A stretch of 64,000 bases of DNA, from assembly GCA_037446635.1 (NCBI GenBank), contig JBBIIG010000016.1, positions 1 to 64,000 of the forward strand, read 5' to 3'. Made by a program: the position numbers and the translations under genes. Below, one piece after another: positions 14,738 through 49,784 of the stretch. The first letter of the stretch is position 1, and every line of letters starts with the position of its first letter. This stretch comes from a bacterium (GTDB taxonomy: Bacteria; Zhuqueibacterota; Zhuqueibacteria; Oceanimicrobiales; Oceanimicrobiaceae). The notes below the pieces were generated by a model that saw only the letters and a program-made list of their open reading frames with translations, searched no databases and was not told the DNA's origin.

Positions 14738-15038
14738 GGTTCAATCGCCTTTGAATGGCGCAATATCATTAAAAAAGGTTAAACAGTCAAGAGGCTGGCG
14801 GAGCCCACGCAGAGCGCGGAATCAAGATTAAGAAAGCGGAGCGGTCCTTGCCTGCCTGCGTAGGCAAACGCAATGAAGCCATCTCCAAATTCTGAGCACC
14901 CACGCGGGAATTGCCTCGTCGTAGTCTTTTCAATAATATAAAGATTCGCCCCATCAATTATGTTGATTTTTAGTGGCACGCTCTTTATATTTACGCCGTT
15001 ATTTTAGCGTGCTCATCCATCCTAACCCGGAGGCGGTC

Positions 15039-32566: not shown

Positions 32567-33976
32567 GTGACCTTCGAAATTTTCCACCGTTACCGTTCGA
32601 TTATCGATGACTGGCCGGCGTTCCTCGACGCCCTCCGCCGTCCGCTGCCCACCTGCATTTGGGCGAACACCGCGCGCATTTCTCCGAGTCAGCTGCACGA
32701 AAGACTCACGCGCGACGGGATCGCTGTTAAGCCAATAGAATGGTACGAGGGCGCGTTTCGGCTGCCGCCGGAAATAAGCATCGGAAATCGATTAGAGTAT
32801 CTCGCCGGTTTGTGTCACGCGCAGGAAGAAGCCGCGATGATTCCCGCCGTGCTGCTCGATCCGCAGCCCGGTGAGCGCGTGCTGGAATTGTGCGCGGCGC
32901 CGGGGAACAAAGTCGCGCAGATGTCGCTGAAAATGCAGCAGCGCGGCGCGGTGATCGCCAACGATTTCAATTACCATCGCATGAGGGCGCTGCGCCGCAT
33001 TATCGATCGGCTTGGACTCGTCAACGTGAGCGCAACCCTCTGCAACGCGGTTTCCTACCCGCGGCCGCCCGAATTGTTTGATCGCGTGCTGGTGGATGTG
33101 CCGTGTTCCTGCGAGGGTACGTCGCGCAAAAGTCCGGAAGTGCTGTTGCACGGCCGAATCAACCATCTCGAAAGATTGCAAGCCGCAATTTTACGGCGCG
33201 GGCTGCAACTCTGCAAGCCCGGCGGCCGGGTGGTGTATTCCACCTGCACCTACGCGCCGGAAGAAAACGAGATGGCGGTGCAGGCCGCGCTCGATTTCCT
33301 GTCTCCAAAAATTCACGCCCGAATATTAGAAGCGAATTTGCCGGGATTGAACTGGAGTCCGGGCCTGGAACGCTGGCAGGGAACGGCCTTTCGCGCCGAT
33401 ATGCGCCACGCCATTCGCATCTATCCCCATCAAAATGATACCGGCGGATTTTTTATTGCGGTGATCGAAAAATTGCAGGGTTCAAATTCCGGGTTGACAA
33501 CGGAGGTGGCTGAATTGAATTGGGTGGATGGCCAGCCCTATTTAGAATATCTCGAAGAACGTTTTGGCATCCCGCGATCGGTTTTCGAGGGTTATCGTTT
33601 CTTTCGCGCCAACGCCAAATCCATCGCCATCATCAATGAAGATCATCGGATCGCTGCGCCGCTGCATTTTGCCGGCGTGTCGTTTGTTCACACCAACATG
33701 AAATACCCAAAACTCTCCACCGCCGCGGCGCTGGCCTTCGGAAAATATGTTACTCGTAATGTCGCCCAACTCGATCGTTTTCAAGCAGAAGACTATTTGA
33801 AAGGCAAGACGCTTTATGACGTGGTTGAAAATTTGGATGAGGGATACGTGTTTGTGAGGTACGCAGACATCACGCTTGGCGTGGGGGTTTTTTTCAAACA
33901 CGAAAACACCACGGAGCTGCGCAGCTCATTTCCCAAAGCTTGGCAACTCAGTGCGCCAGATGAGACTCATCTTTGA
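32567..33976 (+). CDS. RsmB/RsmF (NOL1/NOP2/Sun) RNA m5C methyltransferase
   Basis: 'LCAAPGNK', 'DVPCS', 'VYSTCT...EENE'. Confidence 0.9.
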   Translation: MTFEIFHRYRSIIDDWPAFLDALRRPLPTCIWANTARISPSQLHERLTRDGIAVKPIEWYEGAFRLPPEISIGNRLEYLAGLCHAQEEAAMIPAVLLDPQPGERVLELCAAPGNKVAQMSLKMQQRGAVIANDFNYHRMRALRRIIDRLGLVNVSATLCNAVSYPRPPELFDRVLVDVPCSCEGTSRKSPEVLLHGRINHLERLQAAILRRGLQLCKPGGRVVYSTCTYAPEENEMAVQAALDFLSPKIHARILEANLPGLNWSPGLERWQGTAFRADMRHAIRIYPHQNDTGGFFIAVIEKLQGSNSGLTTEVAELNWVDGQPYLEYLEERFGIPRSVFEGYRFFRANAKSIAIINEDHRIAAPLHFAGVSFVHTNMKYPKLSTAAALAFGKYVTRNVAQLDRFQAEDYLKGKTLYDVVENLDEGYVFVRYADITLGVGVFFKHENTTELRSSFPKAWQLSAPDETHL

Positions 33977-44020: not shown

Positions 44021-44049
44021 TTGATTATCTTGGCGAGTATGTTTATATT
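44021..44049 (+). promoter_or_regulatory. sigma70-type promoter of ftsH
   Basis: TTGATT-N17-TATATT. Confidence 0.6.
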
Positions 44050-46547: not shown

Positions 46548-46964
46548 ATGCCTGATAAAATAAAAACCTTTTCTTGGTTCGATCGACAGATCCTCAGCCT
46601 TACACTCAACTCTCCGAAAGGCAACGTCCTCGATCGCCAGATGATTTCCGAGCTGAGCGAAGCGGTCAAACGCGCGGGCTCGGATTCAAAAATAAAAGCG
46701 CTGGTGTTTGAAGGTGCGGGCGAAAATTTTTCGTACGGCGCCAGCATTCCAGAACATCAACAGGAAGTCGTCGCTGACCTGCTTTCCAAATTTCACGATT
46801 TTTTCCGGTCGCTCATTCAAATCAGCAAGCCCACTTTGGCGCTGGTGCGGGGACAGTGCCTCGGCGGCGGATTGGAATTGGCCGCATTTTGCAACTGGAT
46901 TTTCGCCAGCGACGACGCGCAGTTCGGGCAGCCGGAAATCAAATTGGGAGTCTTCCCGCCGGTG
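46548..46964 (+). pseudogene. 5' half of an enoyl-CoA hydratase (cyclohexa-1,5-dienecarbonyl-CoA hydratase-like)
   Basis: 'PKGNVLD', 'FSYGASIPEH', 'CLGGGLEL', 'FGQPEIKLGVFPP'; homology then stops. Confidence 0.8.
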
Positions 46965-47848
46965 GCGCGGTGCGCAATTCTGGCGTCGTCACAGGCGCTA
47001 TTACTCAGAACGCGGCCGTACCCACGGTGCCGCTGCCAAGCCTTTCGTTTTCTGCAGGAGGCGAAAACGTCACGGTTACAAAGAACGGTTCGCTGGCCCT
47101 GCAGCCGGGTACATACGGTAACGTCCAGGTAAACACAAATGGCAGGTTAGAATTAGTGGATGGCGACTATTTTCTGGAAAACTTGAATCTCGACAAATCG
47201 GCGGTTTTAGTGATCGATGTTTCTGCAGGTTCGGCAACGGTGAATGTTTCGGGATTGATTGGCTTTGGTAAGAATTCGGAAGTGGAGATTACTCCGGGCG
47301 GTGAAAGTGCAACCCAGGAGGCGACGTTCAACAATTTAAATAATGGCACTTTGAAGATTCAAGCCAGCGCAAAAGTTTTGGGCTCGATCATGGCGCCGAA
47401 GGCGACGGTGGTGCTCGACAAGAACGCTCGTTTCAAGGGGGCGATTTTTGCGAAGGCCATCACTGTGAATAAGGGGGCGACTTTTTTGCATCACAGTTCG
47501 ACCACCAGTTTACCGAAAGCCGCTCCGCTGGATGACGAAGCGCCGGCAGAGATCATCGCCTCGGCTCCAGCGAAATTTGAGTTAGGGCAGAACTATCCGA
47601 ACCCGTTCAATCCCAGCACGACCCTTACGTTTGCGGTTCCGCGAGCCAGTGACGTTGCGCTTTCGATTTATAATCTCCGCGGCCAATTGGTTCGCAAGTT
47701 GGTTTCGGGATCCTTTGCGGCCGGCCGGCACCAGGCCGTTTGGGATGGCACGGACTCTGAGGGCGTGCGGGTCGCCAGTGGGATTTATTTTTACAGATTG
47801 CAAGCGCGGGATTTTGTCGCCGTCAAAAAGCTCTTGCTGGCGAAATAG
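46965..47848 (+). pseudogene. 3' remnant of a secreted protein with FlgD-like C-terminal domain
   Basis: Beta-rich repeats and QNYPNPFNP...SGIYFY tail; no start or signal peptide, joined out of frame to the hydratase fragment. Confidence 0.75.
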
Positions 47849-47913
47849 TATCAAATGACCACAGGAGAAGAAGTTATAGGTTTTCTTAGGCATAACGAAG
47901 AAAATGGCTGATT

Positions 47914-48018
47914 AAAGCTGGGAGGATTCATCGGGAATCCTCCCGGCCATTTCCTTCGGTCCGACTATCCCTGGCAGGTTGCTCCTCAGCAGAGCCTGCT
48001 TGCGTTTCGTCGGACGGA
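47914..48018 (-). ncRNA. Candidate ~100-nt structured RNA overlapping the 3' end of the second DUF1670 gene
   Basis: Upstream TTGATT-N16-TATATT promoter; nested stems GUCCGAC/GUCGGAC and GCAGG/CCUGC; terminal 10-bp hairpin. Confidence 0.4.
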
Positions 48019-48857
48019 TTTAATATAGCAGATGCAACCTCAGAATCAAGTCTATTTTGTTCTTTGAGTTTTTTGAGTTTGTCCGGTAGCAGATCGATGT
48101 ATTGCTGGACCACTCGCGGCGCCAGACGGGTGAGCTGACTGATTTTGTCGAGTTGCTGAATGCCATGTTTCCAGAGCATTTCCACGCGCTGGTAGTCGCG
48201 GATATAACGGTCGACCGATTCTGCAGCGTGGTTGGTTTTAATGGCGATGTCGGGCGTGAGATAACCCTCGAGGTAGAGGGTGATAATCTCTCGTTTGTGA
48301 GTGATGGCGCCGGAGAGATCGTGGATGTTGCCGCGGGTCGGCAGCAGCTTGCCGTCTTTCTGGATTTCACAGACGTACTGGCTGACGACGGCATCGCAGA
48401 CGCCCAGCAGAACCGACAAATCGAGATTGGTCAAAACGGCGCCCTGGTCAAAGGCTTCATAGACCCAACGTTCGAGGAGGCGTTTGCGCAGAGTTTTGGA
48501 ATCGAAGCCGTGAGCCAAGTGCGCGATATCGTTATCGGTGACAAACGACAGCACCACCGGCTTCATGCGAGTTTGCGCCAATGATTTGCCTTTTTGTGGG
48601 TATTCATCGACGGGCACCGCCATCCACACCAGTTGACCGTAATGGAGGTGGTGCAGGTCGTCGTCCAGAGAAGAAACCAGAAAATAATCATCGATGAGTT
48701 TGAGCAGGTCATCGATGATGGCGCGGGCGGTGACTTCGCCTTTGTCGTAGCCGTAATGGTTGAGGAAGCGGTGCAAGAGTAACTGGTGGAGACTTTTAGA
48801 TTTAAGTCTCCGGAATTTCTTGAGTTGAATTTGTTCTTTGGTAAGCGGTTTACTCAT
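47928..48857 (-). CDS. DUF1670-type protein B (309 aa)
   Basis: 'EAFDQGAVLTNLDL', 'LPTRGNIHD', 'THKREII', 'TNHAAESVDRY'; ATG overlaps the stop of gene A. Confidence 0.8.
   Translation of the reverse strand: MSKPLTKEQIQLKKFRRLKSKSLHQLLLHRFLNHYGYDKGEVTARAIIDDLLKLIDDYFLVSSLDDDLHHLHYGQLVWMAVPVDEYPQKGKSLAQTRMKPVVLSFVTDNDIAHLAHGFDSKTLRKRLLERWVYEAFDQGAVLTNLDLSVLLGVCDAVVSQYVCEIQKDGKLLPTRGNIHDLSGAITHKREIITLYLEGYLTPDIAIKTNHAAESVDRYIRDYQRVEMLWKHGIQQLDKISQLTRLAPRVVQQYIDLLPDKLKKLKEQNRLDSEVASAILNPSDETQAGSAEEQPARDSRTEGNGREDSR
48022..48049 (-). promoter_or_regulatory. Internal sigma70-type promoter pointing to the left end of the element
   Basis: TTGATT-N16-TATATT with extended -10 TG; same hexamers as the ftsH promoter. 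Confidence 0.55.
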
Positions 48858-49704: not shown

Positions 49705-49784
49705 AGGAGTTCCTCCTCTCTTGAACAGGGTTAATATAACTCCTATGGTCATTTGATACAAACTTATGATAAAAGACATGAACT

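Follow-up and report, generated by a model that had tools for sequence, protein, structure and literature searches.

An apparently undescribed small RNA gene near the ends of many unrelated transposons and on some small plasmids

The window, by which we mean the whole stretch of 64,000 nucleotides that was analysed, contains a mobile element in which two genes for DUF1670 proteins, A and B, lie between 20-nt terminal inverted repeats, with a predicted structured RNA encoded at the 3′ end of gene B (Table 1). A scan of the genome collection gave 40 related DUF1670 loci. In 30 of the 35 flanks that were long enough to read (of 37; translations inspected by eye), the right end directly adjoins the stop codon of an oppositely oriented secretion-tail gene and supplies that stop. 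The two junctions often differ, so a true target-site duplication was rejected; the junctions look like recombination at a short core. A fold search with protein B returned no match at E = 0.001 or better and only weak winged-helix hits. The read-through tail of this protein had been described as apparently unstructured, which is borne out by pLDDT values below 50 from residue 277 on. The RNA-derived tail is present in 42 of 120 close homologues and, given this and its disorder, is a passenger.

Some further features of these elements are recorded here. The target gene looks 5′-truncated and overlaps a truncated enoyl-CoA hydratase ORF (46548–47132; region 46548–47848), and full relatives of both parts are found on contigs C12 and C7 of the same genome. 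One related locus (L027, positions 1–25) has a second right-end-like sequence followed by the end of a secretion-tail gene, about 3 kb upstream of the element, which suggests an earlier insertion or scar. The Poribacteria DUF1670 elements have, by eye, a different, hairpin-rich right end. Contig C3 of the window's genome carries near position 33611 a dead relic at another kind of site with a decayed RNA (35 bits) that has lost part of P2 and the tail, which is what selection for the RNA by the element rather than by the host would predict. Six more right-end remnants of DUF1670 type lie at secretion-tail stop codons (C1 near 278261, C19 near 45629, C20 near 31878, C28 near 54413, C52 near 11456 and C100 near 3980), and C52 also holds a rearranged DUF1670 relic.

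Table 1. Positions of the element, its target gene and the parts of the predicted RNA in the window
Feature	Position	Strand	Remarks
Target gene	46856..47848	+	Ends in FlgD-Ig/Por-secretion-tail domain; element at its stop codon, in opposite orientation
Right terminal inverted repeat	47848..47867	.	Adjoining 47843-47848 supply the Lys codon and stop of the target gene
Gene B, DUF1670 protein, 309 aa	47928..48857	-	Last ~30 codons run through the RNA as unstructured passenger tail
Gene A, DUF1670 protein, 284 aa	48850..49704	-	Paralogue of gene B
Left terminal inverted repeat and conserved AGTT core	49740..49766	.	Repeat 49740-49759; core outside it
Sigma-70-type promoter of the RNA	48022..48049	-	-35 at 48049-48044, extended -10 at 48027-48022; inside gene B
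ncRNA, predicted, ~139 nt	47877..48015	-	5′ end inferred as first base of P1
5′ core, P1-P2-P3	47959..48015	-	Two-sided changes in homologues
P1	48015-48009 with 47965-47959	-	
J1/2	48008-48001	-	Purine-rich
P2	47999-47995 with 47978-47974	-	
P3	47991-47988 with 47983-47980	-	Unpaired CUC between P2 and P3
Loop L3, GAGG	47984..47987	-	Last three bases are 5′ strand of pseudoknot PK2
Bulged A	47979	-	
AGGRAU, 5′ strand of pseudoknot PK1	47967..47972	-	Complementary to tail, nearly invariant
Variable domain	47896..47958	-	P4 (47958-47946 with 47908-47896) around hairpin P5 (47944-47920)
3′ tail	47877..47893	-	AUGCCU, PK1 3′ strand, 47893-47888; A-rich linker; CCU, PK2 3′ strand, 47880-47878; then usually a conserved A

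The predicted layout of the RNA is a P1–P2–P3 core, a variable P4/P5 insert of 53–174 nt and a 3′ tail, which pairs back with the core in two pseudoknots. The window copy scores 107.8 bits with the covariance model R1. The preliminary description had claimed a structured RNA of about 100 nt at this position. Structure is indicated by the 116 nt from 48020 to 47905, which fold at −49.6 kcal/mol (z = −4.58, with none of 200 shuffles as good); the length has to be revised, as conservation extends further and the molecule is predicted to run from about 48015 to 47877, about 140 nt. Nested stems are present as described, except that in the homologues the inner CUC/GAG pairing gives way to UGCU/AGCA around the GAGG loop, with CUC unpaired. 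The 10-bp hairpin, which had been read as terminator-like, is also present, but is the internal stem P5 and probably not the end of the RNA: it is enclosed by a helix, and the U run that goes with it is weak and separated from it by 3 nt.

Homologues were sought with a core pattern, which matched 11 stretches in viral contigs (several by chance) and at least 117 in metagenomes. Much of P3 and the AGGRAUA stretch were fixed by this pattern, which accounts for part of their invariance; P1, loop L3, the tail and most of P2 were unconstrained. The conserved tail, AUGCCU-N-A-rich-CNN, stands behind 112 of the 135 core matches listed, and many of the misses are at contig ends. In an alignment of 79 sequences (of 95 with inserts of up to 115 nt) 91% of the cells are paired, with 287 two-sided changes, compared with 0 of 500 shuffles and with 30–49% for slid controls. 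Two-sided changes occur in all seven P1 pairs and in five of the six P2 pairs. Within P3, two independent W positions are complementary in 103 of 103 sequences, the swaps being U-A/A-U and U-A/C-G. A second set, collected mainly with the covariance model, comprised 38 loci, 11 of which were unparsed or duplicates, while three of the remaining 27 repeat earlier sequences; here the P3 position is U-A in 23 of 27 and C-G in four.

The pseudoknots differ in the kind of evidence that they offer. The variable pairs of PK2 are Watson–Crick in 99 and 93 of the 100 sequences that could be parsed (of 103), against shuffle means of 41 and 61 and maxima of 57 and 73; three pair types occur at one position and two at the other, and in the second set both positions are Watson–Crick in 19 of 19. 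PK1 (AGGRAU with AUNCCU) is 97% paired, with a non-canonical R·G middle pair, and is so nearly invariant that it shows little covariation and is deduced from complementarity. The P4 helix is found in 102 of 109 inserts, compared with 29% of shuffles, and L3 reads GGAG, GGGG, GAGG or GGCG in the homologues. P5 resembles an intrinsic terminator, upstream of the tail, in 27–29 of 109 sequences, and by a crude test a terminator-like fold follows the tail in only three of 109. A conserved uORF at the AUG of the tail was considered and rejected (AUC, AUA or AUU in ten of 103, with no fixed frame), as was an antisense role of a P5 arm at the ribosome-binding site of gene A, which is not conserved.

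A promoter of the form TTGATT-N16-TATATT, with TG upstream of the −10 hexamer, had been reported inside the end of gene B and is present there. The further remark that the same hexamers serve ftsH also holds, since both precede that gene at 44021–44049 with a 17-nt spacer. The pair recurs at 14963–14991, giving three matches in the window, where 0.01 would be expected. Among 117 distinct regions upstream of RNA homologues, TAnnnT starts 31–35 nt before the core anchor in 58, compared with 6–9 in six control windows. The Bacteroidota promoter consensus is TAnnTTTG, and this form is found in 23 of the 117, compared with 0–2 in the control windows; 55 have neither form in those windows. The promoter-to-core spacing places the start of transcription at P1, from which we infer that the RNA is transcribed independently. 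Covariation and promoter conservation give strong support to a structured RNA that is encoded by the element and has a promoter of its own, and judged from sequence comparison the locus almost certainly holds a real structured RNA gene. That the locus might be nothing but an outward promoter and a terminator hairpin, the fold being incidental, we regard as close to negligible. A weak terminator-like site on the opposite strand (47917–47947) could indeed end the transcript of the target gene, but such a site occurs in only ten of 109 sequences, for which reason P5 was rejected as a general opposite-strand terminator, and the long-range pseudoknot covariation is left unexplained.

The DUF1670 elements are only one kind of carrier. 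Among the metagenome matches listed, 80 loci had flanks, and in 77 of these a neighbouring ORF could be tested; in 41 of the 77 it carries a transposase or IstB domain. These comprise 28 of IS3/IS481 type, seven IS110, three ISL3, two IS21 and one IS256, and further neighbours among the 77 are three ExeA-like ATPases and one tyrosine recombinase. NCBIfam adds ISNCY, a Zn-binding IS256 variant and IS6-like proteins below the family cut-off, while IS4, IS5, IS630, IS66 and IS200 are absent from the 41 transposase-linked loci listed. In 19 of 44 scored loci (seven more were too short) the RNA and the transposase lie together between inverted repeats of 18/22 or better, with incomplete elements at 13–16, values that carry no formal chance control. 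Of 44 copies, 26 have their nearest RNA relative in another element class and 18 in the same one (shuffle mean 9, maximum 19), and an IS3-type and an IS110 copy are 90% identical. Because same-class nearest relatives exceed the shuffle mean in this way, there has been some vertical descent, together with much exchange among element classes.

The distribution is broad but patchy. The RNA was found in 24 of 151 genomes of the window's phylum and in two of 151 and four of 151 in two other phyla, and a pattern search of about 300 genomes of a fourth phylum, with a positive control of five out of five for the pattern, gave none; draft genomes often lose repeated elements, so that the genome counts are lower bounds. 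When plasmids were searched by BLAST, the four queries found 3, 2, 0 and 1 short matches, three of which were scored with the model. Two small Bacteroidota plasmids, from Hymenobacter aerilatus and Tunicatimonas pelagia, carry the RNA (44.6 and 47.3 bits), with no transposase annotated in the plasmid stretches examined, and the plasmid carriers have rep genes. In Acidisarcina polymorpha (pACPOL3) the RNA follows an IS110 gene, and several copies from the window's own phylum have no recognisable transposase beside them. We also note several unusual copies. A full copy in an inovirus-like viral contig (L050:657–808, minus strand) is flanked by a small gene on one side and by a hairpin-rich intergenic region on the other. 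A variant of Hymenobacter-plasmid type (L093, L095, L101, L136, L157 and L210) has an unusually long insert, with repeated hairpin modules with a conserved loop in the variable domain. In a group of IS6-like zinc-ribbon transposases from the window's phylum (L186–L189, L193 and L204), below the cut-off, the RNA is downstream on the same strand, and at an IS256 end (L107) a tandem duplication of the RNA's 5′ part immediately precedes the full copy.

The orientation of the RNA bears on two regulatory readings. In the 41 listed loci, 34 copies converge on the 3′ end of the transposase gene, four lie downstream on the same strand and three are divergent; many overlap the transposase 3′ end, and the DUF1670 copies all point outward. 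For the present element the promoter may read across a circle junction into gene A, and the RNA-less relatives appear, by eye, to keep an outward promoter. A circle-junction promoter cannot, however, explain the fold, nor the 34 copies that face against the transposase. Around the left end, a promoter-like site (TTG..-N17-TATATT) overlaps the terminal repeat by eye (49731–49760, minus strand), a short hairpin in the same segment can cover the ribosome-binding site of gene A, again by eye, and gene A may not need to rely on a junction promoter. In the RNA-less elements (L019–L023 and L025–L036), the outward promoter apparently kept near the right end is of TTGAC type. The second reading would make the RNA a ligand- or protein-sensing attenuator, the core of which sets read-through at P5 and thereby controls antisense transcription into the transposase where the copy faces inward or, in outward copies such as this, transcription that leaves the element or crosses the circle junction. 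An aptamer-like core followed by a hairpin that is sometimes terminator-like, and the prevalence of copies facing against the transposase, are what such a device might look like. We nevertheless consider it unlikely, as the varied orientations would give opposite read-through effects, P5 and the core have no strand in common, the strands that complete the pseudoknots come after P5 and about three quarters of the copies have no U tract.

A guide function, by analogy with omega or bridge RNA, had been suggested for this RNA, and can be addressed through the DUF1670 elements themselves. Of 36 related loci (of the 40) scored with the covariance model, a set from which four identical copies and one member of a near-copy pair were in part left out, nine carry the RNA. 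In a tree of 25 elements, after seven near-identical rows had been dropped, the RNA is confined to one supported clade, in which seven of 12 have it. The presence of the RNA at the end of a strongly site-specific element would suit a guide or bridge RNA that serves proteins A and B. This proposal is largely refuted and now very improbable: the RNA is absent from 18 of the 25 elements, and the RNA-less ones insert at the same secretion-tail stop codons; unrelated transposase families share the RNA; and complementarity to target or element ends does not rise above background, the longest matches to the target gene or left end being 6–8 nt in six elements, against 6–9 nt in controls (a split short guide would escape this test). 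In our view the RNA is very probably a partner-independent cargo and not a guide.

In another reading the RNA would work in cis on the DNA of its own element, as a primer or in an R-loop like ColE1 RNA II, and so serve replicative circle formation or plasmid replication. This reading draws on the carriers, which are mostly circle-forming IS families and small plasmids with rep genes, and on the inovirus-like contig, where by eye the hairpin-rich intergenic region is downstream of the RNA. We regard it as improbable: there is no conserved G-rich hybridizing stretch or origin downstream, either orientation occurs, and an RNA-less DUF1670 element is present in six copies in one chromosome, which shows mobility without the RNA.

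The explanation that we put forward, tentatively and with somewhat less than balanced confidence in it as a whole, is that of a stable trans-acting RNA that aids the persistence of circle-forming elements. The 5′ end would lie within P1, and PK1 and PK2 would hold the 3′ end in place; with both ends sequestered in this way, a stable closed RNA could be left after 3′ trimming, and as a terminator-like fold so rarely follows the tail, trimming or cleavage probably generates the 3′ end. The RNA would bind a widely conserved host molecule in trans, as a decoy or inhibitor, and would not act on its own transposase; action in trans on such a molecule is favoured because neither the partner gene nor the orientation is constant. 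It would help the element to persist or re-integrate. The extrachromosomal DNA circle is the likely stage, since most of the carrier IS families move through DNA circles. Several points weigh against this explanation. The link to circle families rests on few independent lineages, with 28 of 41 of IS3/IS481 type and the IS6-like carriers below the cut-off, and the own-phylum copies without a recognisable transposase do not fit readily. A simple closed RNA leaves the terminator-like P5 upstream of the tail unexplained. Furthermore, a catalytic pocket, or one for a small ligand, would account for a core that is invariant across phyla no less well than a host protein would.

The last point leads to a ribozyme, which we find rather doubtful. 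The double-pseudoknot core would in this case belong to a new class with RNA-cleaving or RNA-ligating activity, and might for instance set the RNA's own 3′ end or process transcripts running across the element end. The core is compact, with near-invariant unpaired purines and the R·G pair in PK1, no partner gene would be needed, which fits the swapping among element families, and the scarcity of terminator-like folds after the tail is again consistent. To our knowledge, known self-cleaving ribozymes have no promoter of their own directly at the first helix, as this RNA has at P1. The hammerhead CUGANGA is not conserved, no Rfam ribozyme matches, and the core invariance is in part imposed by the search pattern.

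Taking the trans-acting and catalytic possibilities together, we lean slightly towards a new functional RNA class, either a ribozyme or an inhibitor of host surveillance made of RNA alone. It would be a portable accessory gene, independent of any partner protein, which small plasmids, phage-like elements and unrelated insertion sequences have repeatedly captured and exchanged. Insertion sequences are thought to carry little besides a transposase, and the known IS RNAs (omega, bridge and antisense) each serve one cognate protein or mRNA; the present RNA would be a new kind of mobile-element RNA. One tertiary fold in about ten unrelated element types, with a promoter form that varies with host lineage, points to an overlooked general function of mobile DNA at the RNA level. 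Concentration in little-studied phyla is a likely reason that it was missed. An RNA of about 140 nt with a defined core and natural compensatory variants is amenable to tests of catalysis, ligands and partners.

As for known RNA classes, Rfam 15 gave no matches at the gathering threshold in the window; with E up to 10, the segment 47700–48250 gave only a chance match (E = 5.2), and 20 homologous loci gave five unrelated sub-threshold matches. The RNA is like GOLLD, ROOL, HEARO and the Breaker-laboratory mobile or repeat candidates (PMC11109978, in the part available to us) in being a conserved, covarying orphan RNA on mobile DNA, and unlike them in being much smaller and without a match in Rfam 15. 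One example of the mobile or repeat motifs, MRSC-65-2, is a single long stem according to the accessible part of PMC11109978, and the motifs of PMC10085705, from what could be seen of that paper, come from ribozyme-bearing metatranscriptome contigs. In the literature searched, so far as its accessible text extends, neither the RNA nor DUF1670 is described; the supplements of PMC11109978 and PMC5737381 may contain the motif, which was not found in the portion seen of the PMC8632094 supplement. The accessible part of bioRxiv 10.64898/2026.10.21.760802 does not describe the RNA, and its cluster database may include the motif unnamed.

Two known folds share short features with the RNA. The window sequence CUGAGGA recalls CUGANGA, the motif that together with GAAA makes up the invariant hammerhead core, but it spans P3 and the variable loop L3, the motif is not conserved and a hammerhead was rejected. 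The SAM-I clan of riboswitches offers a closer resemblance, in a GCAACC strand that faces GG..UGC and in a pseudoknot between a loop and the 3′ tail; the present RNA differs in that the helix is capped at the opposite end, there is no Rfam match and no methionine genes lie downstream. In the SAM-I core, SAM is recognized by an unpaired A and U of P3. The equivalent bases here covary as the Watson–Crick pair that is U-A in 23 and C-G in four of 27 copies, and a SAM-I-like pocket was rejected. Nor is the position that of a riboswitch leader, there being no consistent co-oriented downstream gene among the listed loci, most of which converge on the transposase 3′ end.

The omega RNAs or reRNAs of TnpB and IscB are pseudoknotted RNAs at the ends of IS200/IS605/IS607 elements and take their guide from flanking DNA. 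The RNA described here is similarly a pseudoknotted structured RNA at an IS end that overlaps the 3′ end of an element gene, but it has no TnpB or IscB neighbour (neither Pfam domain was found in the genes of the window or in 113 neighbouring ORFs) and is not bound to one protein family. Its conservation stops at about 47877, some 30 nt inside the element and short of the terminal repeat at 47867–47848, which leaves no flank-derived guide. Bridge RNAs and seekRNAs have loops complementary to target and donor DNA and an IS110 recombinase as partner. They share with the present RNA a non-coding element end, a site-specific host element and, for some carriers, the IS110 family (IS110/IS1111; bioRxiv 10.64898/2026.10.21.760802, in the part available). 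Unlike these RNAs, which have an obligate IS110 partner, it is optional, lacks target- or donor-matching loops and adjoins IS110 in only seven of the 41 listed loci, most carriers being DDE transposases or DUF1670 elements. Finally, the cis-antisense RNAs of insertion sequences are complementary to the translation start of the transposase. Like IS10 RNA-OUT and IS200 art200, the present RNA has its own promoter inside the element and is often antisense to the transposase mRNA. In this element it lies at the 3′ end in sense orientation, and its longest complement in the leader of gene A is 6–7 nt. It thus differs from the cis-antisense RNAs in lying at the 3′ end of the transposase or on the sense strand, away from the ribosome-binding site, and in keeping one tertiary fold across unrelated elements.
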